Of a DNA stretch of 64,000 nucleotides, positions 1,633 to 42,987 are shown piece after piece. The position numbers and the translations under genes were made by a program. Numbering within the stretch: the first letter of the stretch is position 1; the number at the start of each line of letters is the position of its first letter. The notes under the pieces were generated by a model, which was not told the DNA's origin, did no database searches, and worked only from the letters and a program-made list of their open reading frames with translations. Source of the DNA: an uncultured Bacteroidales bacterium (GTDB taxonomy: Bacteria; Bacteroidota; Bacteroidia; Bacteroidales; P3); the NCBI GenBank assembly GCA_900317125.1, contig ONFR01000020.1, positions 345 through 64,344 of the forward strand, read 5' to 3'.

Positions 1633-2406
1633 ATGCCACAAGAAAATGAAAATGAAATTCGTTACTTTCATATAATGGAAGGGGTCGGAATTAATAGCGA
1701 AACAAAGATTTGCCAGTATTTAGATTTAAAGTATTTAATGAAAATACTGAATGAGGAGTCGTACTATGTAAAAAGGAAAAAGTTCTTTGTTGATGATCGT
1801 GAAAAAGACTTTCCTGAACTACTGCGTTTTGGTCTTGAACCAATGGACCCTGAATATAGAAAGGACCATGCCGCTGAGATTGCCAAACGACAAGCAGAAT
1901 GGGACAAAAGTGTTTCGCAATACAAAAAACAATCATACTTACTAACATCGTGTTGGACGGTAAGGACTATGGAGAATATTCTTATGTGGGATAGAGGTGC
2001 CAAAAGCAGAGCGTGCATCGTTTCAACAATAGGGGATTTTGTTGGTTCTTTTGAAAAAGACATAAACTATGAGATATGGTGTGGAAGAATGTTTTACGAG
2101 CCATTCTCAAAAGTCATCAAGTTTGAGAATAAGATTTGGGTAAAAGAGCCTTATTTTGCTGACGAAAACGAAATTCGTTTTTATTTCTCTTCAAGTTTTG
2201 AGAAAGTCGAGACCGACACCCCTAAAGAGAAAGAGTGTCCAGAAAAAGGTGTTTCTCTAAAAGTAACACCAAAACAAATGATGCGTGAAATAGTATTATC
2301 ACCTTACCTTGATAAGAAATGTGCTGAATCCCTGAGTAAGGCAATTACTGATAAATATCACATTAATGCAAGACTCTCTTTTTTAGATTTATCAAACAAA
2401 GAATAA
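1633..2406 (+). CDS. Hypothetical cytoplasmic protein, DUF2971-like
   Basis: 257-aa ORF with AT-rich codon usage unlike the flanks. 'YLDLKYLMKIL...FFVDDRE' and 'LTSCWT...ENILMWDRGA..ACIV' resemble the DUF2971 motif pattern as remembered. No signal peptide. The family assignment is tentative. Confidence 0.55.
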   Translation: MPQENENEIRYFHIMEGVGINSETKICQYLDLKYLMKILNEESYYVKRKKFFVDDREKDFPELLRFGLEPMDPEYRKDHAAEIAKRQAEWDKSVSQYKKQSYLLTSCWTVRTMENILMWDRGAKSRACIVSTIGDFVGSFEKDINYEIWCGRMFYEPFSKVIKFENKIWVKEPYFADENEIRFYFSSSFEKVETDTPKEKECPEKGVSLKVTPKQMMREIVLSPYLDKKCAESLSKAITDKYHINARLSFLDLSNKE

Positions 2407-2407
2407 T

Positions 2408-3814
2408 ATGAAGAAATTTTCAGTAATTTTGATTGCGCTGTGCGCGATAATTGTTGTTTCTTGTCAGAGCGATACGGACAAGGCCGACAAGTTTAGGTTA
2501 AATAATGAGTTTGGCAAGGCTGCCGAGTTGTACAAAAAAGCTGCTGCGGAAGGGGATGCATACGCCATGTGGCGATTGGCTTATGCTTACAGCAATGGCG
2601 ATGGTGTGGAATATAATGAAGAGAAAGCTTTGGATTACTTGAAACGTGCTGCCGATGCTGGGTGTGAAGAGGCTGAATGCGACTTGGCAAGAGCGTACAT
2701 ATTCAATTGGCTCGATATTGGCACAGACAAAAAGAAAGGCAAAACTATGATGGATGCACTTATGGAAAGAACGAACAATTCTTATGTTATGGCAAACTAT
2801 GCCGCTTTGCTGTGGGACGGTGATGAACCATACAATGAGGACAAAGACAGAGCTTTGGAAATTTTGGATAACATCAAAGACAAAGATGAACCCTTATACC
2901 TTGGATTTATAGCCGGTGTGAACTTGTTAGGAACCAGTAAAATCATCCCTAACATATACAAAGCAATAGATTATTATAAAAGGGCATTTCGTTATGGCCA
3001 CAGGTATTGTGCATATATGTTGTATCTTTGTTATATTCAAAATAATGATGACTTAGAAGCGGATACAACAGAAGCATTGGAATGGTTGCAAAAAGGCATC
3101 GAGGCGAATCAGACTAAATGCATGATTGAGATGGCGGATATTTATTTCTCAGACGACAGTGCTTTTCAAAAATACCACAATGTGTCGCGCGGTATTGAAC
3201 TACTGAAAGTTGCAGCAAGGCACGGTTCGTCTGAAGCATACCTAAGACTGGGTATTGTAAACTATGGGGGCCAGCATGTTGATAAAGATGATGATAAAGC
3301 ATTTGAATATATGGAAAAGGCTGCCAAGATGAGAAACGCAGTTGGTGCATGCGATTTGGGATGGTACTATATACTAGGCACCGGTTGCGAGAAGGATGTA
3401 GAAAAAGGTATAGAGACATGGAAAAAAGCCGTAGAATATGGTAGTGCGCCTGCCGCAAATAATCTGTTTGTGTACTATCATGGCGGCGGTTCAAATATCC
3501 CTGCTGGACCAAGGGACAATGACTTAGCCAAAGATTATTTGCTTAAAGCAGCAAAGATGGGAGATGAATATGCCTGCTACAGCCTCGGAGAACAATACTT
3601 CATGGGGAATGATTTGGTTGAGCAGAACACTTATTTAGCATTCTTATACACAAAAAAAGCTGCAGATGCCGGGTTGGTTAATGCCTGTAATACAATGGTA
3701 TACTTATACAGTGAGGGCATTGGTTGTGACAAGAATCCCGATAAGGCTCGTGAGTATGAAAACAAGACAAAAGCGAAGGAGGATCTTGAAAAGGAAAAGC
3801 AGATTGAAAAATAA
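2408..3814 (+). CDS. Sel1-like repeat (SLR) lipoprotein
   Basis: Starts 1 nt after the previous stop codon. Lipoprotein signal 'ILIALCAIIVVSC'. Many Sel1 repeats, e.g. 'AAEGDAYAMWRLAYAYSNGDGVEYNEEKALDYLKRAADAG' and 'AARHGSSEAYLRLGIVNYGG'. Confidence 0.8.
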   Translation: MKKFSVILIALCAIIVVSCQSDTDKADKFRLNNEFGKAAELYKKAAAEGDAYAMWRLAYAYSNGDGVEYNEEKALDYLKRAADAGCEEAECDLARAYIFNWLDIGTDKKKGKTMMDALMERTNNSYVMANYAALLWDGDEPYNEDKDRALEILDNIKDKDEPLYLGFIAGVNLLGTSKIIPNIYKAIDYYKRAFRYGHRYCAYMLYLCYIQNNDDLEADTTEALEWLQKGIEANQTKCMIEMADIYFSDDSAFQKYHNVSRGIELLKVAARHGSSEAYLRLGIVNYGGQHVDKDDDKAFEYMEKAAKMRNAVGACDLGWYYILGTGCEKDVEKGIETWKKAVEYGSAPAANNLFVYYHGGGSNIPAGPRDNDLAKDYLLKAAKMGDEYACYSLGEQYFMGNDLVEQNTYLAFLYTKKAADAGLVNACNTMVYLYSEGIGCDKNPDKAREYENKTKAKEDLEKEKQIEK

Positions 3815-3834
3815 TGGCTCAATAAGTCGTAATA

Positions 3835-3877
3835 AAGCAAAGGGCACTGCAAGGACAGCCTGCAGCGTCCTTTGCTT
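3835..3877 (+). terminator. Hairpin downstream of the SLR gene (possible terminator)
   Basis: Perfect 9-bp stem AAGCAAAGG / CCTTTGCTT with an inner CTGCA/TGCAG pairing. No clean T-tract follows. Confidence 0.35.
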
Positions 3878-3880
3878 ATA

Positions 3881-4069
3881 TTAGTATAAAAAACCGAACA
3901 TCCAGAGGGGGATGTTATGGAGAGAGGCTTGCTCGATGTCATCTCTCACAACGTAGGCTTTCGCGGGGTCCATCGTAGCAACTTGTCGGCGGGTTTTGTT
4001 TTTCCCACCTATCTCAAAAGTATATCCGTCAACCTCAAAGGGTTTCCATAATACTATTTTTCGATGCAA
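3881..4069 (-). pseudogene. C-terminal remnant of an AAA-ATPase (DUF4143-type ATP-binding protein)
   Basis: Only ~60 codons remain ('...FEIGGKNKTRRQ...VVRDDIE...IPLWMFGFLY'). They resemble the conserved C-terminus of Bacteroidales DUF4143 ATPases. There is no ATG, only a TTG, and no N-terminal ATPase domain. Confidence 0.4.
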
Positions 4070-4219: not shown

Positions 4220-4307
4220 CGGAAAGGAAGGGATTCGAACCCTTGAAGCGCTTTTAACGCTTACTCGCTTTCCAGGCGGGCCTCTTCAACCACTCGAGCA
4301 CCTTTCC
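4220..4307 (-). tRNA. tRNA-Ser (anticodon GGA)
   Basis: Hand-folded cloverleaf. Acceptor stem GGAAAGG/CCTTTCC, 3-bp D stem, anticodon loop CTGGAAA, long variable arm (AAGCG/CGCTT), T arm AAGGG-TTCGAAT-CCCTT and discriminator G. CCA is not encoded. Confidence 0.9.
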
Positions 4308-32056: not shown

Positions 32057-34552
32057 ATGGACGACAACAGCAGCAAAACACAGCGGACGCAGACCGACCT
32101 GTCATTCCTCGACGACAAGCAGTCCATCTCATTCCACATCAAGGACATCATATTCTTGATACTCCGCAATATACATTGGCTCATCATCTTCGCGGCATTA
32201 GGAGGTGTGGTTGCCAACCTCTACGCACGCCGTCAGGAGAAATCCTATGAAAGCTCCGCCAAAATTCTGATCCGTGCCGGAAACGACATCAACGTCAGCG
32301 ACAACGACACTCGCGAAGCTACCATTCGCACTGCCCTGGGACTGCGTTCGTTCTTCTCCAGCACCATAAACAACGAGATTATGATTCTCACCTCCAAATC
32401 CACAATCCAGAGAGCGGTAGAGGATCTCCATCTCAATGTAAAATATTCGACCAAGACCCGCCTTATTCACCGAGACAAGGATCTCTACAACACTTCACCC
32501 GTCGAAATCGAACTGCTCGATGACAACGAAGGTTTCAAACTGCCCGGCCGTCTTACCATCAAAATCCTCGATAAAAGTCACGTACTCCTCTGCACTCCGG
32601 GTCACCACGCCTTATATATCCCTGTCGACAAGACTGTCATCACCCCGCTCGGCAAACTCGTCATCCACAAAACATGGGCTTTCGAAGACGACTACATCGG
32701 ACAGGAGATTTTTGTTGAGAACCTGGATCCCGTGGCTGTGGCCGAATACTACCGCGCCCGTCTTGTCGTGCGCCGCAATGACGACCGCAACACCATCCTC
32801 AACCTCACCATGCGCGACCCCTCGCCGGAACGCTGCGCCGACTTCATCAATGCTGTCATCCGCGTCTACAACGACGGTGCCGTTAACGATAAGAAACGCA
32901 TCATCTCCGACACCTACAACTACATCAACGAACGTATCAACATCATTAGTGGCGACCTCGATGCACAAGAGTCAGCCATGGCCAACTACCGCAGCAGCAA
33001 CGATGTAGTCACCTCCGCCACCGTGGGCGAAAGATACATCTCCGCCAGCATCTCCTCCAACAACGAAATCAACCGTATGCAGTCGGAACTCGAGATGGTA
33101 CGTACCCTTCTCAACGCCATCCGCTCCAACGACGGCAGCCGTGTTATCCCCATCGGAACCGTCACCAACTCCATCATCGTCTCCTACCTCACCAACTTCA
33201 ACCAGCACGCACAAGAAGTGGCCCGCTATCTTGAGAGCGGTATCACCAGCAACCCCATCGCCACACGTGCCATCGAAAACCAACGCCAGCTCCAGCAGGA
33301 TCTCGCCACTATGACCGAAGGCTACATCTCCTCCCTCGAACAACGCATCATGAACGAACGCAACGTTGCCAACACCGCCTCTGCCAAAATGCGCTCCGTC
33401 CCCCAGAAGCAAATCTATCTCGAAGGTATGGAACGCAACCAGAAGATCAAGGAGCAACTTTATGTCTCCCTCCTCACTCGCCGTGAAGAGCTCATGATCA
33501 GCCAGCCCTCTCTCGAAGGCAACGCCAAAATCATCGATGCTGCACAGGTCATCAAACGTCCGGTCTCACCCAACACTCCCCACATCACCTTCATCGGTAT
33601 CATCATCGGACTCCTTCTGCCAGTAGTATACTACATCCTGCGCCGCCTCTTCGACACCCAGGTCAAGAGCTATGCCGACATTGAGTCCTCTATCACCGTA
33701 CCCTTCCTCTGCGAAATCCCGGCCCTTGACGACACCGAAAAACGCGACATCGTCATCACCGACAAAGAACATGAGGGCATTGCCGAATCCTTCCGTCACC
33801 TGCGTTCCAAAATCGACTTTCTCAGCAGCCAGCCTGGACAAGCCAAGACGCTCTTGTTCACATCTCTCATGCCTGGATCCGGCAAAACATTTACCACCAG
33901 TAATCTGGCTGCATGCATCGGCCTTACCGATAAAAAGATACTTATCATCGATATCGACTTGCGCAAAGCCTCCCTCACCCGCCGTTTCTATAGTCGCCAC
34001 AAACCCGGTTTAGTCAACTACCTTACCGGCAAAGTCGACGACATCACATCTCTCATCCAGCACGATGTCATGGCTCCTGGTGTTGATTCTCTCTTCTCCG
34101 GCCCCATCCCGCCAAATCCTGCCGAACTGCTCAGCAATCCCCGCTTTGACCAAGGCATATCCACCCTGCGTTCCAAATACGACTACATCATCATCGACGG
34201 CACGCCGGCTGGCATGGTTGTAGACACCGACATCATCAAACACGTGGCCGACCACACCTGCTTCATGATTCGTGCCCGCAAATTCGACAAACGCTTGCTC
34301 CTCGACGTTGAGCGTCTCTACAAAGAGGAGGCTTTCCCCAATATGTGCATCATTCTCAACGATGTCAAATACGAGAAGCAGCCCATCTATGGCCGCCGCT
34401 ATGGTTACGGCTATGGCTACGGTTATGGCTATGGCTACGGCTACGGTTATGGCTATGGTTACGGCTATGGCAATCCCAACGAAAGCCTGAGCGACGAGGA
34501 ACCTCAGGAGAAGAAAGGACCTCTCTCCTGGCTCAAATTCAAGAAAAAATAA
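32057..34552 (+). CDS. wzc: Polysaccharide co-polymerase / BY-tyrosine kinase (Wzc-like, PCP-2a)
   Basis: N-terminal Wzz/GumC-like domain between two TM segments, a long coiled periplasmic region, kinase Walker A 'SLMPGSGKTFTTSNLA', 'IIIDGTPAG' and a Tyr-rich tail. Confidence 0.85.
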   Translation: MDDNSSKTQRTQTDLSFLDDKQSISFHIKDIIFLILRNIHWLIIFAALGGVVANLYARRQEKSYESSAKILIRAGNDINVSDNDTREATIRTALGLRSFFSSTINNEIMILTSKSTIQRAVEDLHLNVKYSTKTRLIHRDKDLYNTSPVEIELLDDNEGFKLPGRLTIKILDKSHVLLCTPGHHALYIPVDKTVITPLGKLVIHKTWAFEDDYIGQEIFVENLDPVAVAEYYRARLVVRRNDDRNTILNLTMRDPSPERCADFINAVIRVYNDGAVNDKKRIISDTYNYINERINIISGDLDAQESAMANYRSSNDVVTSATVGERYISASISSNNEINRMQSELEMVRTLLNAIRSNDGSRVIPIGTVTNSIIVSYLTNFNQHAQEVARYLESGITSNPIATRAIENQRQLQQDLATMTEGYISSLEQRIMNERNVANTASAKMRSVPQKQIYLEGMERNQKIKEQLYVSLLTRREELMISQPSLEGNAKIIDAAQVIKRPVSPNTPHITFIGIIIGLLLPVVYYILRRLFDTQVKSYADIESSITVPFLCEIPALDDTEKRDIVITDKEHEGIAESFRHLRSKIDFLSSQPGQAKTLLFTSLMPGSGKTFTTSNLAACIGLTDKKILIIDIDLRKASLTRRFYSRHKPGLVNYLTGKVDDITSLIQHDVMAPGVDSLFSGPIPPNPAELLSNPRFDQGISTLRSKYDYIIIDGTPAGMVVDTDIIKHVADHTCFMIRARKFDKRLLLDVERLYKEEAFPNMCIILNDVKYEKQPIYGRRYGYGYGYGYGYGYGYGYGYGYGYGNPNESLSDEEPQEKKGPLSWLKFKKK
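34400..34471 (+). repeat. In-frame (TAY-GGY)12 hexanucleotide repeat encoding the (YG)12 C-terminal tyrosine cluster of Wzc
   Basis: Twelve consecutive Tyr-Gly codon pairs, with synonymous variation at the wobble positions. Confidence 0.9.
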
Positions 34553-35688: not shown

Positions 35689-36324
35689 ATGCAGAACTCA
35701 CTGATAATACTGAAATCCACCCTCAGCCGACTGCCTTCATACTACTGTCTAATCGAGGAATACCATGCTGAAGGTGAAGAATATGTATCGGCCACAACCA
35801 TTGCGGAGAGCCTTTCTATCAATCCCGTTCAAGTACGCAAAGACCTGGCAAGCATCTGCTCCGAGCCCGGCCGTCCCAAACGCGGATTCAAGGTTGAGAC
35901 GCTGCTCAACGACCTTAAAATGTATCTAGGCTACAATCACTACGACGAGGCTGTACTCGTGGGTGTTGGAGCCTTGGGCCATGTGCTGATGCAATATGGC
36001 GGATTTGCCAACTATGGACTGGGAATCGTGGCCGGGTTCGATAAAGTCGTTCACGAGAAGAAAATAGGCGACAAACCAATTCTGCCTATCGAGAAACTGA
36101 CGTCATTCCTTCGCCGAACCCATATCAAGATAGGAATTATTGCCGTTCCCGCCACCGAAGCACAAGGGGTGGCCGACCTGCTGGTTGCCGGGGGAATCAA
36201 AGCCATCTGGAACTTCGCTCCCACTACCATCAACCTTCCTGACCACATACTGGTCAAAAACGAAAACCTTGCCGCCTCGCTTGCTGCCCTTACTGCGGAA
36301 TTATTGCGACGCAACGGCAAATAA
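35689..36324 (+). CDS. rex: Redox-sensing transcriptional repressor Rex
   Basis: 'RLPSYYCLI', 'VSATTIAESLSINPVQVRKDLAS' (wHTH), 'LVGVGALGHVL' (Rossmann) and 'IGIIAVPATEAQGVADLLVAGGIKAIWNFAP'. Confidence 0.85.
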   Translation: MQNSLIILKSTLSRLPSYYCLIEEYHAEGEEYVSATTIAESLSINPVQVRKDLASICSEPGRPKRGFKVETLLNDLKMYLGYNHYDEAVLVGVGALGHVLMQYGGFANYGLGIVAGFDKVVHEKKIGDKPILPIEKLTSFLRRTHIKIGIIAVPATEAQGVADLLVAGGIKAIWNFAPTTINLPDHILVKNENLAASLAALTAELLRRNGK

Positions 36325-36535
36325 CAGCAATCCCCTAGTACTCTAAACGATTACATTTCAATCCTTCGGGCAACCATATAATCAGGGGTAAATTAGTTCC
36401 AAAATTCATTCTCAAGTGCATTTTTTAGGTAATTAATTCGATAAAAAAAGTGTGATATGTGAAAAATATCATCCTACATATCAACTATATGGAAAGAAAT
36501 AACTAAAAAAAATTGTGTATGTGGTGTTTATTTTG

Positions 36536-36543
36536 TAATTTTG
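36536..36543 (+). promoter_or_regulatory. -7 box (TAATTTTG) of the hydrogenase operon
   Basis: TAnnTTTG within a ~500-bp AT-rich spacer. It leaves a ~280-nt leader before the ATG at 36827. Confidence 0.5.
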
Positions 36544-36826
36544 CAACCCGAAAGAACACTCGAGGACATTGAAAAAATCCAATATGGATGAAATAATGCA
36601 AACAACATAAACGGACATCAAAAAGTGAACCTACAATAATCGTTACTCCCCCGTACAGCTTCCACACCTCAAACTAAACAAACCACTTAGCCTCTACTTC
36701 CCCTTCTCTATTCAGCCATTCAATCATGATGTTCATTTAGTTTCAGCGCAAGAAAAGAAAATATCGGCCAAGCACGACAACAAACTGATGCCAACCTTGG
36801 CCTTTTAATAATTCAAACAAGACAAT

Positions 36827-37126
36827 ATGACTATTAAAGTTTGTGTGGGCAGTTCATGCCACTTAAAAGGCTCTTACGACGTGATAGAAGCCTTCAAAGA
36901 AGTGCTTAGGAAATACGACGTAGAGGATATCGTGGAATTGCAGGCCAGCTTCTGTCTGGGGCACTGCGCTCGTGGCGTTACTGTACGCTGCGAAGACGGT
37001 GAGCCCGTTGCACAGGACCCCCGCGTCGAGATCTGCGACGACTGCTTCATCATTCACGATGTAAACGCTCAGAATGCCGAGGAGCTGTTTGCCAACGAGA
37101 TCTATCCCAAACTGAATTTAAACTAA
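36827..37126 (+). CDS. Thioredoxin-like [2Fe-2S] ferredoxin (NuoE/HndA-like domain)
   Basis: 'CVGSSCHLKGS' and 'FCLGHCARG' give the Cx4C...Cx3C ligand pattern. Confidence 0.7.
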   Translation: MTIKVCVGSSCHLKGSYDVIEAFKEVLRKYDVEDIVELQASFCLGHCARGVTVRCEDGEPVAQDPRVEICDDCFIIHDVNAQNAEELFANEIYPKLNLN

Positions 37127-37145
37127 GTCACGAGAATCACTCTGT

Positions 37146-38864
37146 ATGTCAGAATATATGGAATTTAAAACGGTGCAGTGCAAGGACTGCTACCGTTGTG
37201 TGAGAGAATGCCCTGTAAAGGCCATCGAAGTAAAAGGTCACCACGCACAGATTATTGAAGACCACTGCATCCTGTGCGGGCATTGCACGCATGTCTGTCC
37301 CCAAAACGCCAAGATTGTTCATAGCGAACTTCCCCTCGTCCGGCAATTGCTGGCCTCGGGCGACCGTATTGCAGCATCCGTCGCCCCCTCGTTTATCAGC
37401 AGCCTGAAGGTGAAGGATTTCACCACCCTGCATATTGCGCTTGCCAAACTGGGGTTCTCCATTGTTGAAGAGACCGCCCTCGGAGCCCAGGCAGTGGTTG
37501 AAGAGTACAAGAAAGTGCTTGCCAAAGGCGAGATGCGCAACTTCATCACGTCCGCCTGTCCCGCCGCCTGCCGCCTTATCCAGATGTACTATCCCAAGGC
37601 CCTGCCCTATCTCGCTCCTGTCGAGTCGCCCATGGTGGCACACGCCAAAATGCTGCGCCGCAATAATCCCGATATGAAAATCGTCTTCATCGGACCCTGC
37701 ATCGCCAAGAAACGCGAAGCCGACGAACACAATATCGACGCTGTCCTTACTTTCGAGGAACTGCTCACCCTGTTGAACGAAAACAATATCGACCTCAGCA
37801 ATATCAACCGTCTCACCATCGACAGCGAAAACGCTGGTGCCAACCGTGCCAAAGCTTTCCCTGTCACGAGAGGCATTATCCGCTCTTTCGATGCCCTGCC
37901 CGAAGGCTATCACTACATGACTGTTGACGGTGCTGCCCGCATCCAGGAGGTACTGGAGAACATCGAATCGCTCGACCACGCCTTTATCGAGATGAACGTC
38001 TGTCCCGGTGGCTGTATCAACGGGCCCTATTCTATCCCGCAGGAAGGCGGCATGATAAAAGCCGAGATGGACATCATGGAATATGTCGAACACGAGTTGG
38101 CCACCCATCCCCACACTCCGGCTCCCGATGCAGGTGTATCGTTGAGCATGGCCTACCCGCGCCTCAGAGCCCACAACCGTCCTGCCACCGAGAAAGAGAT
38201 TGAGGACGTGCTCCACCGCACAGGCAAATTCTCCAAACAGGATGAACTGAACTGCGGAGCCTGCGGCTACAGCACCTGCCGCGAAAAGGCTTGGGCTGTA
38301 GTGAACGGCTATGCCGACATCGACATCTGCCTGCCCTACATGCGCAAACGTGCCGAAAGCCTTGCCATCGACGTTGTCCGCAATTCTCCCGAAGGTGTTA
38401 TTCTGGTCAATTCCGACATGAATATCGTCGACACCAACGCCACCGCCATGAAGATGATGGGCATGTCCGGCAAACCCGAAAGCTACCAGGGACGGCCGCT
38501 CTCCGACTTCTTCCCTCCCATCGAGTTCTACAATGCCTACAATGGCCGTTGCCGTGTGGAAAACAAGTGCCTCCATATCGGTGCCACCAACAGGTACGTA
38601 AGCCTCACCGTCAGCCTGCTCAGCGAACAGGATCTGCTGTTCGGCCTCATGAAGGACATCTCCGACGAGGTGAACTACGACAAGAAACTGGACAAGGTGA
38701 AACTGGAGACCATCAGTACCACCGACGGTCTGATTATGAAACAAATGCGCGTGGCGCAAGAGATAGCCTCATTGCTTGGCGAAACCACAGCTGAAACCAA
38801 GGTCGCCTTGCTCAACTTGAAAAAGATGCTGCAAGACTCAGTGGCCAGGGAGGACAAAGAATGA
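37146..38864 (+). CDS. hydS: Putative sensory [FeFe]-hydrogenase (HydS-like, group C type) with a C-terminal PAS domain
   Basis: Two CxxCxxCxxxCP motifs. Degenerate H-cluster motifs 'TSACPA', 'GPCIAKKRE' and 'EMNVCPGGCING'. An exact Cx2Cx4Cx16C motif ('CGACGYSTC...DIC'). A PAS-like segment ('VRNSPEGVILVNSDMNIVDTNATAMKMMG'). Confidence 0.8.
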   Translation: MSEYMEFKTVQCKDCYRCVRECPVKAIEVKGHHAQIIEDHCILCGHCTHVCPQNAKIVHSELPLVRQLLASGDRIAASVAPSFISSLKVKDFTTLHIALAKLGFSIVEETALGAQAVVEEYKKVLAKGEMRNFITSACPAACRLIQMYYPKALPYLAPVESPMVAHAKMLRRNNPDMKIVFIGPCIAKKREADEHNIDAVLTFEELLTLLNENNIDLSNINRLTIDSENAGANRAKAFPVTRGIIRSFDALPEGYHYMTVDGAARIQEVLENIESLDHAFIEMNVCPGGCINGPYSIPQEGGMIKAEMDIMEYVEHELATHPHTPAPDAGVSLSMAYPRLRAHNRPATEKEIEDVLHRTGKFSKQDELNCGACGYSTCREKAWAVVNGYADIDICLPYMRKRAESLAIDVVRNSPEGVILVNSDMNIVDTNATAMKMMGMSGKPESYQGRPLSDFFPPIEFYNAYNGRCRVENKCLHIGATNRYVSLTVSLLSEQDLLFGLMKDISDEVNYDKKLDKVKLETISTTDGLIMKQMRVAQEIASLLGETTAETKVALLNLKKMLQDSVAREDKE

Positions 38865-40027
38865 AGAATCTTTGCATAGAATATGGCTTCACCTCGCTCA
38901 ACCATGTAGGCGAAGAGCTGTGTGGCGACAACGTGGAAACATGTGTACGCGGCGACTACACCACCGTGGTGTTGGCCGACGGGCTAGGCAGTGGCGTAAA
39001 AGCCAATATCCTTGCCACACTCACCAGCAAAATCCTTTGCACCATGGTGGCCAACGAAGCCGACATCGAAGAGTGTGTGGAGACCATCATCCAAACACTC
39101 CCGGTATGTAAGGAACGCCAGCTTGCCTACAGCACCTTCTCCGTAATCCATGTCGACAACAACGGCAAAGGCCACTTGTTCGAATTCGACAACCCCGAAG
39201 CCATCTGGTACCACAACGGCCACACTCAGGACTTCCCCAACCGCCAGCCCCTCACCATCTGCGGCAAGCAGGTGTTCCACACCGAGCTCTCCCTCTCCGA
39301 AGGCGACATGGTCTTCGTCATGAGCGACGGCACCATCCACGCCGGCATCGGCCAGATACTGAACTTCGGCTGGCAGCGCAAGGAAATCATGGAGCACCTC
39401 GACCACAACGTCGACGCCCACATGTCGGCCCGTGCTGCCGCCTGCCTGCTTGCATCGGCCTGCAACGACCTCTACCTCGACCGTCCGGGCGACGACACCA
39501 CCGTGGCCGCCATCCGCATCCATCGCCGCATGGAAGTACACATCATGGTAGGTCCCCCTGTCGACAAAGAAAAAGACCAATTCTACGTGCAGCGCTTCAT
39601 GGAGGGGGCCGACAAGCGCATCGTCTGCGGCGGCACTAGCTCGCAGATTGTGGCACGCTGTCTCGGGCGCCAGCTCAAGACCAGCTTCGACTTCCCCGAC
39701 CGCGAAGTACCCCCCATCGGCTTCATCGACGGCATCGACCTCACCACCGAGGGGGTCATCACCCTCCGCCGCCTCCTCTCACTCTCCGAGAAATACGTAT
39801 CCTCCAAAGACCTCACCCCGAAAACCTACTCCAAAAAGGACGGCGGCTCGCTTTTAGCCAACATCATCTTCGAAGAAGCCACCCATGTGGTCTTCTTCGT
39901 CGGACAGAACGTGAATGCAGCCCACCAGGGTCTGGACATAGATATCACCATGAAGCTGAAGCTCGTCGAGCATATCGCCGAAAATCTACGCCGCATGGGT
40001 AAAGAAGTAACCGTAAACTACGATTGA
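38861..40027 (+). CDS. SpoIIE/PP2C-family serine phosphatase with an uncharacterised C-terminal domain
   Basis: 'GEELCGDNVE', 'VVLADGLGSGVKANI' and 'VFVMSDGTIHAG'. ATGA overlap with the HydS-like gene. About 190 C-terminal residues carry no motif I recognise. Confidence 0.75.
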   Translation: MKNLCIEYGFTSLNHVGEELCGDNVETCVRGDYTTVVLADGLGSGVKANILATLTSKILCTMVANEADIEECVETIIQTLPVCKERQLAYSTFSVIHVDNNGKGHLFEFDNPEAIWYHNGHTQDFPNRQPLTICGKQVFHTELSLSEGDMVFVMSDGTIHAGIGQILNFGWQRKEIMEHLDHNVDAHMSARAAACLLASACNDLYLDRPGDDTTVAAIRIHRRMEVHIMVGPPVDKEKDQFYVQRFMEGADKRIVCGGTSSQIVARCLGRQLKTSFDFPDREVPPIGFIDGIDLTTEGVITLRRLLSLSEKYVSSKDLTPKTYSKKDGGSLLANIIFEEATHVVFFVGQNVNAAHQGLDIDITMKLKLVEHIAENLRRMGKEVTVNYD

Positions 40028-40029
40028 TT

Positions 40030-41481
40030 ATGGAACAGAAACTTTTCGACACCAACGTACAATGGATTAAATACAAGGTACTGAAAGAGGTCATCCGCCG
40101 CGCCTACGAGGGCGGTCTCGAAAATGCCTATCTCGAGATACCCAAAATCATCAGCCCGGGCCCGAAATCCGAGCTCAACTGCTGTATCTACAAAGAACGT
40201 GCCATTGTACAGGAACGCATCCACATGGCCATGGGGGGCGACAAGGACAACCCCAACCCCGTCCAGGTGATGGAAACCGCCTGCGACGAGTGCCCCGCAG
40301 CCGGCATGATGGTGACTCCCGCATGCCGTGGCTGCTTGATGCATGCCTGCCAAGACGTTTGTCCACGCAACGCCATCACCATTGTCAACCACCGGTGCGT
40401 CATCGACAAGTCCAAGTGCATCGAATGCGGCAAGTGCTCCCAAGCCTGTCCCTATAGCGCCATCATCGCCCAGAAACGTCCCTGCATGCAGAGCTGCAAA
40501 GTGAAAGCCATCAGCATCAACGACGAGGACAAGGCGGTTATCGACAACAGCAAGTGCATCTCCTGCGGCGCTTGCGTCTACAAGTGCCCCTTCGGCGCCA
40601 TCAGCGACCGCAGCCTGGTACTTGACATCATCAAGCTCCTCCAGGAGTCGGAGAACAACACACGCTACCGTGTCTACGCCGTCATCGCACCTGCCATCGT
40701 CAGCCAATGCCGGTTCGGACGCATCACCCAAGTGGTCACCGCCATCAAGAAACTGGGATTCCACCAGGTTGTTGAAGCCGCCTTGGGTGCCGACATCACC
40801 CTCTACAACGAGGCACGCGAATTCCGCGAGAAAGGCGAAGGCGCCGTCATGACCACCTCGTGCTGCCCGGCCTTCGTCAGTTTTGTCGAGAAGAACTTCC
40901 CCGAATTCAAGGATGCCATCTCCTCATCCGTCTCGCCCATGGTGACCACTGCAAAACTCATCAAACACTCCGACCCCACCGCCCGTGTCGTCTTCATCGG
41001 CCCCTGCGCCGCCAAGAAAGGCGAATACACCCTCGCCAAAACCGGCGGCATGATCGACTCCGTCATGAGTTTCGAAGAGCTCCAGGCCTTTGTCGACGCC
41101 CGCGGTATCGACACCACCCAACAGGAAGACACCATCCTCGACAACGCCTCCTACTATGGCCGTATCTTCGCCAAGAGCGGCGGTATCGCCCAAGGCGTAG
41201 CCTACGTGGCCGGGAAGATGGGCTTCGATGGGGTCAAACCCATCGCCATGAACGGTATCGACCAGTGCCGCATGCAGCTCACGCTGCTGCGTGCCAAAAA
41301 AGCCACCGCCAACTTCTTCGAAGGCATGGCCTGCGACGGCGGCTGCATCGGAGGACCGCTCTGCATCACCCACTCACCGCGCAACGTGGTCGATGTCGAC
41401 AAATACGGCAACGAAGCCAAGGAAAAAGACATCGACGGCTCCGTGCGCCTCTACGAAATGACCATGCAGGACAAAAAATGA
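40030..41481 (+). CDS. hydA: Catalytic monomeric [FeFe]-hydrogenase, group B type
   Basis: Canonical H-cluster motifs 'TTSCCPAF', 'GPCAAKKGE' and 'FEGMACDGGCIGGP'. Cys-rich N-terminus with two ferredoxin-type CxxCxxCxxxCP motifs and extra Cys clusters. Confidence 0.85.
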   Translation: MEQKLFDTNVQWIKYKVLKEVIRRAYEGGLENAYLEIPKIISPGPKSELNCCIYKERAIVQERIHMAMGGDKDNPNPVQVMETACDECPAAGMMVTPACRGCLMHACQDVCPRNAITIVNHRCVIDKSKCIECGKCSQACPYSAIIAQKRPCMQSCKVKAISINDEDKAVIDNSKCISCGACVYKCPFGAISDRSLVLDIIKLLQESENNTRYRVYAVIAPAIVSQCRFGRITQVVTAIKKLGFHQVVEAALGADITLYNEAREFREKGEGAVMTTSCCPAFVSFVEKNFPEFKDAISSSVSPMVTTAKLIKHSDPTARVVFIGPCAAKKGEYTLAKTGGMIDSVMSFEELQAFVDARGIDTTQQEDTILDNASYYGRIFAKSGGIAQGVAYVAGKMGFDGVKPIAMNGIDQCRMQLTLLRAKKATANFFEGMACDGGCIGGPLCITHSPRNVVDVDKYGNEAKEKDIDGSVRLYEMTMQDKK

Positions 41482-41507: not shown

Positions 41508-42923
41508 ATGACAAACAAAAAAAATTATCGTACCGAAACCGACCTCCTCGGTTCAAAAGAAGTACCCGAAGAGGTGTACTACGGTGTTCAAACCAGCCGT
41601 GCCATAGACAACTTCCACATCAGTGGACACCTGCTCAGCAGCTATCCCAACTTCATCCGGGGCATGGCCATCACCAAGAAAGCCGCCGCCATGGCCAACA
41701 TGGAAGTGGGCATGATCACCCCCGAACAGGGCGAGGCCATCTGCTGGGCCTGCGACCAGCTCATCTCTGGACGTTTCCACGACCAGTTCCCCATCGACAT
41801 GATACAAGGCGGTGCCGGCACCAGCACCAACATGGCTGCCAACGAAGTTATCGCCAACCTCGCCCTTGAACGTATGGGCCACCAACGCGGCGAATACCAA
41901 TACTGCTCGCCCAACGACGTTGTCAACGCCTCGCAAAGCACCAACGACGCCTACCCCTGCGCCATCCACATGGCCATGTGTCTCGAACACCTTGCCTTCA
42001 TGCCCCATCTGGAGAAGATGATCGACTCCCTCGACAAGAAAACCAAGGAGTTTGCCCACGTCATCAAGATGGGCCGCACCCAGCTGCAGGACGCCGTCCC
42101 CATGACCCTTGGACAGACCTTCAGCGGTTTTGCCGCCGCCCTGCGTGGCGAGGTGGCCAACCTCCGCAATGCCGCCGACGAATTCCTCACCGTCAACATG
42201 GGTGCCACCGCCATCGGCACCGGCATCTGCTCCAAACCCGGCTACAGCGAAGCCTGCATCAAGGCCCTCCGTAAAGTCACCGGCTGGAACATCACCCTGG
42301 CCGACAACCTTATCGAGGCCACCAGCGCCACCAGCTGCATGATCCAATACAGCTCCGCCATGAAACGTCTGGCACTGAAGGTCAACAAGATGTGCAACGA
42401 CCTCCGCCTCCTCTCCTCCGGCCCCCGCTGCGGCCTGAACGAAATCCACCTCCCCGAGCGTCAGCCCGGCTCCTCCATCATGCCCGGTAAGGTCAACCCC
42501 GTCATCCCCGAGGTCATGAACCAGGTCTGCTACAAAGTCATCGGCAACGACATGTGCATCACCTTTGCCAGCGACAACGGCCAGCTCGAGCTCAACGTCA
42601 TGGAACCCGTCATCGCCTACACCCTCTTCGAGAGCGTCCACCTGCTGGAGAACGGACTCGACACCCTCCGCACCCTCTGCATCGACGGCATCGTCGCCAA
42701 CGAGGAGCGCTGCCGCCAGCTTGTTCAGAACAGCATCGGCATCGTCACCATGCTCAACCCCATTATCGGTTACAAGACCTCGACCAAAATTGCCAAAGAG
42801 GCTGCCGAGACTGGCCGCGGTGTATACGAGCTCGTCCTCGAACACAAACTCCTCACCAAAGAGCAGCTTGACGAAATCCTCAAGCCCGAAAACATGCTCC
42901 AACCTGTCGAAATCAAGCTCTAA
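41508..42923 (+). CDS. aspA: Aspartate ammonia-lyase
   Basis: 'YRTETDLLGSKEVPEEVYYGVQTSRAIDNF', the fumarate-lyase signature 'GSSIMPGKVNPVIPE', and a length of 471 aa. Confidence 0.85.
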   Translation: MTNKKNYRTETDLLGSKEVPEEVYYGVQTSRAIDNFHISGHLLSSYPNFIRGMAITKKAAAMANMEVGMITPEQGEAICWACDQLISGRFHDQFPIDMIQGGAGTSTNMAANEVIANLALERMGHQRGEYQYCSPNDVVNASQSTNDAYPCAIHMAMCLEHLAFMPHLEKMIDSLDKKTKEFAHVIKMGRTQLQDAVPMTLGQTFSGFAAALRGEVANLRNAADEFLTVNMGATAIGTGICSKPGYSEACIKALRKVTGWNITLADNLIEATSATSCMIQYSSAMKRLALKVNKMCNDLRLLSSGPRCGLNEIHLPERQPGSSIMPGKVNPVIPEVMNQVCYKVIGNDMCITFASDNGQLELNVMEPVIAYTLFESVHLLENGLDTLRTLCIDGIVANEERCRQLVQNSIGIVTMLNPIIGYKTSTKIAKEAAETGRGVYELVLEHKLLTKEQLDEILKPENMLQPVEIKL

Positions 42924-42951: not shown

Positions 42952-42983
42952 GCCCCGGAAGCTATGCCTTCCGGGGCTTTTTT
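42952..42983 (+). terminator. Rho-independent terminator after aspA
   Basis: Perfect 10-bp stem GCCCCGGAAG / CTTCCGGGGC, 6-nt loop, then TTTTTT. Confidence 0.85.
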
Positions 42984-42987
42984 GTTT

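Follow-up and report, generated by a model that had tools for sequence, protein, structure and literature searches.

A conserved Bacteroidales operon joining a putative H2-sensing [FeFe]-hydrogenase and a PP2C phosphatase to a group-B-type [FeFe]-hydrogenase

Results

A four-gene cassette of the hfsABCD type in a Bacteroidales genome

The window analyzed here is a 64-kb stretch of contig ONFR01000020.1 from an uncultured gut or rumen Bacteroidales bacterium, a host assignment shared with the original prediction, which had been made from the sequence letters. Its + strand carries a cassette of four genes encoding a 2Fe-2S protein, a PAS-containing HydS-like hydrogenase, a PP2C phosphatase and a group-B-type [FeFe]-hydrogenase. 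Judged from its sequence and conservation, the locus is a real, strongly conserved operon, and the kind of system it represents is already known from Ruminococcus albus and Thermoanaerobacterium. We consider it fairly probable that it is the Bacteroidales version of the H2-sensing cassette typified by hfsABCD and R. albus hydS-hydA2, with a signaling function that we infer.

The four genes are tightly spaced on one strand in the order of the hfsABCD and R. albus hydS-hydA2 clusters, and their open reading frames (ORFs) have the boundaries first proposed for them (Table 1). The hydS stop and the phosphatase start overlap as ATGA, which couples the two genes translationally. This junction had been read correctly, whereas the gap between the phosphatase and the second hydrogenase measures 2 nt and not 3 (stop codon 40025-40027, ATG at 40030). 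The hydrogenase ORF has alternative 5' ends at 40024 and 40030 and ends at 41481; the gene caller also selects 40030. The aspA gene starts 26 nt past the hydrogenase stop, a terminator scan found no plus-strand terminator-like site in this gap, and, of the T-tract hairpins on the plus strand of this region, the strongest stands right after aspA. Because no terminator-like site precedes aspA and the first strong hairpin follows it, the transcription unit probably comprises five genes, fdx-hydS-PP2C-hydB-aspA, from a promoter near 36540 to a terminator near 42960. The limits of 36827 and 41481 originally assigned to the unit are therefore probably too narrow. Beyond this unit, the window carries a locus for polysaccharide synthesis on the upstream side and housekeeping genes on the downstream side.

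Table 1. Features of the cassette and its immediate surroundings in the window.
Feature	Coordinates	Strand	Basis
Rex, NADH/NAD+-sensing transcriptional repressor	35689..36324	+	NCBIfam NF003994, 246 bits vs cutoff 130
Predicted Bacteroidetes-type -7 promoter box TAATTTTG	36536..36543	+	Read from sequence; ~285 nt before first ATG
Small thioredoxin-like [2Fe-2S] protein, 99 aa (HfsA / R. albus Fd equivalent)	36827..37126	+	Pfam PF01257
HydS-like putative sensory [FeFe]-hydrogenase, 572 aa	37146..38864	+	Motifs and Pfam
Two-domain PP2C/SpoIIE-type Ser/Thr phosphatase, 388 aa (HfsC equivalent)	38861..40027	+	Pfam SpoIIE
Group-B-type [FeFe]-hydrogenase, 483 aa (HfsD / R. albus HydA2 equivalent)	40030..41481	+	TIGR04105
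Aspartate ammonia-lyase, aspA	41508..42923	+	TIGR00839, 698.9 bits vs cutoff 681.2
Intrinsic-terminator-like hairpin, 10-bp stem with 8 G-C pairs, then T tract	42952..42987	+	Consensus match only

The HydS-like protein matches the architecture of group C putative sensory hydrogenases

The HydS-like protein consists of two [4Fe-4S] motifs, an H-domain, a Cx2Cx4Cx16C motif, a PAS domain and a helical tail, in that order. The N-terminus contains two CxxCxxCxxxCP motifs, and the H-domain is recognized by Pfam Fe_hyd_lg_C (168.6 bits). Its L1 motif reads TSACP (residue 135), placing A137 at the position of C299 in CpI; L2 reads GPCIAKKRE (residue 183), with G183 at the M353 position; and L3 reads EMNVCPGGCING (residue 282), with N284 at the position of CpI M497. 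All Cys ligands of the H-cluster are present (C138, C185, C286, C290), and an exact Cx2Cx4Cx16C motif occupies residues 370 to 395, with a PF04060 FeS domain match of 40.6 bits. The ligands, TSACP, GPCIAKKRE and the four-cysteine motif had all been noted in the original prediction, as had a PAS-like domain. The latter is marginal: PAS_4 (24.0 against a cutoff of 23.1) and PAS (23.6 against 22.6) both pass the Pfam thresholds, and PAS_9 falls below its own (25.5 against 27).

Published second-sphere criteria for HydS are a C299 position that is often Ala, a small residue at M353 and a residue other than Met at M497 (PMC10055695). Because it combines a PAS domain, Gly at M353, a non-Met residue at M497 and Ala at C299, the predicted protein matches the full defining architecture of the group C (M2f) putative sensory [FeFe]-hydrogenases, in agreement with the class first proposed for it. 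Compared by published features, it shares with the group C (M2f) HydS of Thermotoga maritima the domain order, Ala at C299 (A131 in TmHydS), Gly at M353, a non-Met residue at M497, the Cx2Cx4Cx16C motif and PAS (PMC10055695, PMC8163306); the M497 position is Asn in the window and Ser in TmHydS. The group D (M2e) HydS of Thermoanaerobacter mathranii resembles it in the N-terminal clusters, the altered active-site pocket and the C-terminal four-cysteine motif. Group D, however, lacks PAS and carries Ser/Thr at M353 (PMC8163306), and a group D identity of the window protein was ruled out by its PAS domain and its Gly, rather than Ser/Thr, at that position.

Among 72 cassette-encoded HydS orthologues, the Cys ligands and the C-terminal four-cysteine motif are invariant (72/72). 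At M497 they have Asn (34), Ser (37) or His (1), and never Met; at C299, 39 keep Cys, 31 have Ala and 2 have Ser. All 55 catalytic partners compared have Cys at C299 and Met at M497. In the window itself the two hydrogenases share only 31% identity. Of the three second-sphere positions, C299 and M497 alone tell them apart, as Gly at M353 also occurs in the catalytic B-type partner. Because the C299 position varies among the sensors while M497 is never Met, the consistent discriminator between putative sensor and partner is the M497 position together with the C-terminal module; loss of the proton-relay Cys is inconsistent. The Cys-to-Ala exchange, earlier taken as a defining trait, thus does not characterize the family as a whole.

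The phosphatase defines a two-domain PP2C family

The phosphatase comprises a catalytic domain (residues ~1-222) and a conserved alpha/beta domain (~222-388, 165 residues), and it defines a two-domain family of ~388 aa. Relatives were collected as 385 cluster representatives at E <= 1e-30 in a 1.84-billion-protein library, with alignments that run almost end to end for most of the best matches listed. The catalytic domain scores 56.6 bits on Pfam SpoIIE. Its metal-binding residues D23, D40, D156 and D211/D212 are invariant across 29 relatives (28-66% identity) and align with the DG(M/L)G, SDG and DD motifs of SpoIIE. The AlphaFold2 model (pLDDT 86, pTM 0.84) has its best fold matches in SpoIIE, RsbU and RsbX, with a Foldseek E-value of 1.6e-13 to the SpoIIE structure 5mqh. 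The protein thus holds the four metal-coordinating Asp residues in a PP2C fold; their absence had been named beforehand as a finding that would count against the original prediction. SpoIIE, RsbU and RsbX are the closest proteins in both sequence and fold and have the same four Asp positions, but they lack the 165-aa C-terminal domain.

Invariant residues of this C-terminal domain include GGT (257-259), D293, TEG (296-298), T301 and G348. Its model (pLDDT 83) had no PDB match at E < 0.001 (TM <= 0.41), and no Pfam family matched. The sole signal was a marginal SIS-domain profile match (GmhA; E = 0.005 over 59 residues). The domain could be a metabolite-binding input domain. A fused STAS-like substrate was also considered and rejected, as the domain has no STAS match and no significant PDB or Pfam match.

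Unlike partner-switching PP2C phosphatases, which act with a STAS antagonist and an anti-sigma kinase, the window phosphatase has no gene for a STAS substrate or anti-sigma kinase nearby. Among the called genes of the 64-kb window there was no HATPase-type anti-sigma kinase or STAS substrate, and neither the called genes nor tblastn yielded hydEFG, a Ser/Thr kinase or a STAS protein. The earlier statement that no partner kinase or STAS/anti-sigma antagonist lies nearby accordingly stands for the called genes of the window and, for the kinase, by tblastn as well.

The catalytic hydrogenase and the 2Fe-2S protein

In the second hydrogenase the motifs are fully canonical (TSCCP, GPCAAKKGE, EGMACDGGC), and the NCBIfam model TIGR04105 (FeFe_hydrog_B1, cutoff 450) recognizes it with 529.8 bits. 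With the B1 model passed and canonical residues in L1 and L3, it belongs to group B, as had been read from its motifs. The leading gene was correctly described before as encoding a thioredoxin-like 2Fe-2S protein, although the match to Pfam 2Fe-2S_thioredx is marginal (26.0 bits, cutoff 24.8). In all 68 orthologues the cysteines of its Cx4Cx31Cx3C pattern (C6, C11, C43, C47) are conserved (68/68).

The cassette is conserved across phyla

Genomic neighborhoods were surveyed with one genome per species; at least 591 genomes contained a phosphatase relative, and 80 loci (designated by L numbers) were kept. Adjacency was counted only in loci with enough flanking DNA. The HydS gene lies immediately upstream of the phosphatase in 70/72 loci, the 2Fe-2S gene upstream of HydS in 66/72, and the B-type hydrogenase immediately downstream of the phosphatase in 54/71. 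In most loci the hydS and phosphatase genes overlap or abut, usually overlapping by 4-8 nt. Because of these counts, the adjacency of the genes is not due to chance. That a sensor-like hydrogenase, a phosphatase and a hydrogenase stand together fortuitously, or through an annotation artefact, can hardly be credited: their order is kept in ~70 loci of several phyla with start/stop overlaps, and the R. albus orthologues are described as co-transcribed (PMC6776011). Synteny effectively refutes this explanation.

Hosts include Bacteroidales (rumen and gut metagenome-assembled genomes (MAGs), Alistipes, Tidjanibacter, Limimorpha, Coprenecus), many Clostridia, a Treponema and Erysipelotrichaceae. 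In a neighbor-joining tree without support values, the Bacteroidales phosphatases are nested in a Firmicutes-dominated tree, which suggests inter-phylum transfer. AdhE or an iron-dependent alcohol dehydrogenase (Fe-ADH) is linked in 29/80 loci and an APH/RIO-like kinase of ~250 aa in 21/80, none of the latter being Bacteroidales. A tblastn search of the 64-kb window with three kinase sequences and AdhE gave no match.

In three loci (L019, L021 and L023, from Alistipes, Coprenecus and a related MAG) Fdx-HydS-PP2C is present, but the 8 kb downstream contain no B-type hydrogenase; the sensor-phosphatase pair is separated from its presumed target enzyme in some Rikenellaceae-type genomes. Two other loci have a 453-aa hydrogenase-like gene convergent with the cassette (L009, 10645-12006, - strand; L010, 10632-11993, - strand). 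Its product has two [4Fe-4S] motifs, an H-domain and the PF04060 four-cysteine motif, and no PAS; L1 is SSFCP and L2 is ITPCAAK. From these motifs it looks like a group D (M2e) type putative sensor standing beside the group C one.

Known relatives: the R. albus and hfsABCD clusters

The cluster of R. albus 7 plasmid pRUMAL01 was found by tblastn of a plasmid collection, and its composition was taken from NC_014824. The annotation reads Rex-AdhE-phosphotransferase-Fd-Fd-[FeFe] hydrogenase C-terminal-domain protein-SpoIIE phosphatase-4Fe-4S dicluster protein. Zheng et al. in 2014 reportedly described this cluster as Rex-AdhE-phosphotransferase-Fd-Fd-HydS-SpoIIE phosphatase-HydA2. Judged by alignment, all four cassette proteins and Rex of the window are orthologous to members of this cluster. 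Identity is 40.8% for HydS (568 aa aligned, full length), 43.4% for the phosphatase (389 aa, full length), 53.3% for HydB against HydA2 (478 aa, full length), 53% for the 2Fe-2S protein against Fd2 (WP_013483410; 58 aa aligned) and 41% for Rex (204 aa, full length). R. albus HydA2 itself scores 577 bits on the TIGR04105 B1 model and passes it, so the placement of a sensor and phosphatase before a group-B-type enzyme is, on this evidence, not new.

Both clusters keep the order Fd-HydS-phosphatase-hydrogenase with Rex on the same strand, in hosts of different phyla. Three members of the pRUMAL01 cluster are missing from the window (AdhE, the ~250-aa APH/RIO-like kinase and one of the two 2Fe-2S genes), which has aspA downstream instead; the window thus represents the core, hfs-like form and not the extended R. 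albus form with AdhE and kinase. R. albus HydS also differs in having Cys at the C299 position (SSCCH), where the window protein has Ala. The genes of the R. albus cluster are co-transcribed and its HydS is classed in group C (PMC6776011). The 40.8% identity to this HydS, set against only 31% to the B-type neighbor, is indirect evidence that the window protein may fall in group C of the HydDB scheme (phosphatase-linked subgroup C3). In co-culture with an H2 consumer the eight-gene cluster was 111-fold down (Greening et al. 2019, PMC6776011), and the fermentation shifts were the same as those between high and low H2 (PMC6776011).

This response bears on what the HydS-like protein perceives. It might sense cellular redox rather than H2, with its clusters and 2Fe-2S partner equilibrating with the ferredoxin/NAD(P)H pool, the PAS domain reporting to the phosphatase and the H-cluster being incidental or an electron vent. 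A dedicated 2Fe-2S partner with invariant ligands does precede hydS, Rex, an NADH sensor, and genes for electron sinks are found in linkage with the cassette, and the C-terminal cluster has been termed 'putative redox-sensing' (PMC10838669). However, the invariance of all four H-cluster Cys ligands in the 72 orthologues argues that the H-cluster is functionally required, and the R. albus cluster responds to the removal of H2 with the shifts just described (PMC6776011). We regard pure redox sensing as improbable.

The hfsABCD operon of Thermoanaerobacterium encodes a small protein, a PAS-[FeFe]-hydrogenase, a Ser phosphatase and a ferredoxin-linked hydrogenase, the last resembling HydA2 of R. 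albus (PMC11837493). Compared by published description, it has the same four-gene layout as the window and no kinase in the operon (PMC11837493, PMC5707799). The original prediction had set the window apart from the hfsABCD-type layout, which is incorrect, as the published order is the order found here (PMC11837493). The hosts differ: hfsABCD belongs to thermophilic, ethanol-making Firmicutes (T. saccharolyticum / thermosaccharolyticum), and the window to a Bacteroidales with aspA and Rex as neighbors. The original prediction also mentioned only spectroscopic studies of such proteins. This omits both the H2-dependent, 111-fold regulation in R. albus (PMC6776011) and the deletion genetics of Thermoanaerobacterium (PMC5707799). 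There, deletion of hfsA or hfsB raised adhE and rex transcripts and ethanol yield, and hydrogenase activity, given among the single-gene deletions for hfsB, rose as well. Deletion of hfsC or hfsD gave a different phenotype, lactate overflow, and deletion of the whole hfs operon lowered hydrogenase activity and H2 production.

The last result would fit the reading behind the original name 'Hfs', in which the four proteins form one multisubunit catalytic hydrogenase. The HydS-like and 2Fe-2S proteins would then be electron-transfer or second catalytic subunits, and the phosphatase would switch the enzyme post-translationally rather than act on transcription. Overlapping or abutting genes suggest stoichiometric co-production, Pfam finds a DNA-binding domain in none of the four products, and in most loci the core cassette includes neither a kinase nor a transcription factor. 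Against such a complex, the rise in hydrogenase activity and the changed adhE and rex transcripts after hfsB deletion (PMC5707799) are regulator-like. Moreover, hfsD is by itself sufficient for the phenotype ascribed to the enzyme (PMC11837493), and the three loci with Fdx-HydS-PP2C have no adjacent catalytic hydrogenase. A multisubunit enzyme therefore appears unlikely to us.

Rex, aspA and the upstream region

Rex lies directly upstream of the cassette, separated from the 2Fe-2S gene by a 502-nt spacer that contains TAATTTTG. We take TAnnTTTG to be the Bacteroidetes -7 promoter consensus. TAnnTTTG-like boxes align upstream of the cassette in three related loci (L012, L009, L010), and TAATTTTG is probably a Bacteroidetes-type promoter. 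No structured RNA was found in the ~285-nt leader with Rfam, which at the gathering threshold gave only a tRNA elsewhere in the window. In two loci (L011, L013) the gene immediately upstream of the 2Fe-2S gene has an end that resembles, by eye, the pyruvate phosphate dikinase C-terminus. Beyond this gene lies a long inverted repeat (AAGCTGTGAGCTTTAAG ... CTTAAAGCTCACAGCTT), and there is no recognizable TAnnTTTG box.

In 19/80 loci Rex lies no more than 8 kb from the phosphatase, always on the same strand. By our own estimate, a given gene would fall by chance into such a 16-kb span, in a genome of 2.5 Mb, with a frequency of ~0.6%. Across the 80 loci it is the sole DNA-binding protein recurrently linked to the cassette. 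The suggestion that the phosphatase might act on a transcription factor encoded elsewhere overlooked this directly adjacent gene. The aspA gene is linked in Bacteroidales loci only, namely the window and L012, L015 and L016 (3/15), whose gene order is other than that of the window. In L015 (Bacteroidales) the order is hydB-rex-aspA, and the hydB stop and rex start overlap as ATGA. Two different arrangements thus both retain Rex and aspA with the cassette. By analogy with adhE in Firmicutes, aspA may be a lineage-specific alternative-electron-sink partner.

The Rex start lies 1 nt past the stop of a DegT-family aminotransferase gene, the last gene of the long polysaccharide-synthesis locus. From this spacing, Rex may be transcribed by read-through from the polysaccharide genes in addition to its service to the hydrogenase operon.

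A search for Rex operators (TTGTKAA-N6-TTMACAA or TTGTKAA-N4-TTMACAA, up to 3 mismatches) found none in 36325-36826. In 16 Bacteroidales-type upstream regions, neither operators with 4 mismatches nor shared 5+5 palindromes rose above shuffled controls. Four Firmicutes loci (L060, L064, L071, L082) carry TTGTTAA-N4-TTAACAA-like palindromes at a distance of 36-100 nt before the 2Fe-2S gene. These palindromes look similar to Rex boxes and differ from the canonical motif by 3 mismatches.

Other features of the window

Long antisense ORFs of 449-536 aa lie opposite hydS and aspA, for example 37149-38759 (-) and 41553-42902 (-). Their translations are of low complexity and rich in Gly, Val and Asp, and none is among the called genes on these contigs; we take them to be shadow ORFs and not genes. 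Within the polysaccharide locus, an 831-aa protein (32057-34552) ends in a C-terminal (YG)n run (YGYGYGYGYGYGYGYGYGYGYG), and in one related contig the first part of its gene gives a weak Wzz match. The (YG)n end would fit the Tyr-rich tail of a Wzc-like tyrosine autokinase. At 2001-4000, beside a tRNA gene (4220-4307, -), the GC content falls to 0.405, while the rest of the window ranges from 0.47 to 0.58. Recent horizontal acquisition of the cassette, considered on base composition, was rejected, its GC content of 0.48-0.57 lying inside the range of the window.

Discussion

A proposed model for H2 signaling and the points that weigh against it

In the H2-sensing reading that we favor, the HydS-like protein would bind H2 at a slow, tuned H-cluster. 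Its redox state would be exchanged with the dedicated 2Fe-2S protein and relayed through the C-terminal [4Fe-4S] cluster to the PAS domain, which with the helical tail would control the co-translated PP2C phosphatase. The phosphatase would in turn alter the phosphorylation state of a target protein. The outcome would be more expression or activity of the ferredoxin-dependent group-B hydrogenase and of an alternative electron-sink gene, adhE in Firmicutes and here aspA, which would supply fumarate for fumarate reduction by fumarate reductase.

Divided by function, the 2Fe-2S protein and HydS would form the sensor and restrain the phosphatase at low H2. The phosphatase would be needed for the function or expression of the ferredoxin-dependent hydrogenase, and Rex-regulated genes would respond downstream. 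This three-part model of sensor, phosphatase and Rex fits the grouping of hfsA with hfsB and of hfsC with hfsD in the published genetics (PMC5707799). Because Rex is the only DNA-binding protein recurrently linked to the cassette, it is the most likely candidate for the point at which the H2 and NADH/NAD+ signals combine. What the present analysis shows for the window is its gene content, motifs, orthology and synteny; for the relatives it has been shown elsewhere that hfsA and hfsB deletions behave as the loss of a regulator and that the R. albus cluster responds strongly to the removal of H2.

A distant functional parallel is the HoxBC-HoxJ-HoxA system of Ralstonia eutropha, in which, as summarized in PMC5707799, a slow hydrogenase serves as H2 receptor with a PAS partner and phosphorylation-dependent control of hydrogenase genes. 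The protein families are nevertheless unrelated, and Hox signaling uses a histidine kinase and a response regulator where the window has a PP2C phosphatase.

Several points weigh against the H2-sensing reading. Within the 64-kb window no kinase, STAS protein or other plausible phospho-substrate was found, and neither in the window nor in its Bacteroidales relatives did the region upstream of the operon yield a canonical Rex operator (TTGTGAA-N4-TTCACAA, up to 3-4 mismatches) or a shared palindrome. The proton-relay Cys is kept in 39/72 orthologues, so that loss of the proton pathway is not family-wide. Published HydS enzymes still turn over H2 (PMC8163306), and by analogy a catalytic contribution by the HydS-like protein is conceivable. 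Finally, co-transcription with aspA is predicted from gene spacing and a putative terminator alone.

A more specific version of the H2-sensing reading may be proposed for Bacteroidales, although we think it rather unlikely to hold in full. The kinase-less HydS-PP2C pair would act on Rex or on the group-B hydrogenase itself, joining H2 partial pressure and the NADH/NAD+ ratio at one regulator and switching electrons between H2 evolution and the reduction of aspartate-derived fumarate. The conserved C-terminal domain of the phosphatase, possibly SIS-like and phosphosugar-binding, would add a third, metabolite input. If true, H2 would feed back on the very type of hydrogenase that reportedly drives H2 production in the gut.

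Implications

Group-B [FeFe]-hydrogenases have been reported as the main H2 source in the human gut, in a study that left their regulation open (PMC12578642). The kind of system is unchanged by the present findings and the organism is uncultured, so that the practical gain is modest. The comparative data nonetheless narrow the search for the output of the system, with Rex as the sole recurrent DNA-binding protein and a small kinase in about a quarter of the loci. The linked alternative-electron-sink gene varies by lineage and may be adhE, Fe-ADH or aspA. Some Bacteroidales thus encode a group-B enzyme under the same putative H2-sensor/phosphatase module as Firmicutes, which in the window is stripped to its core and stands beside Rex and aspA.

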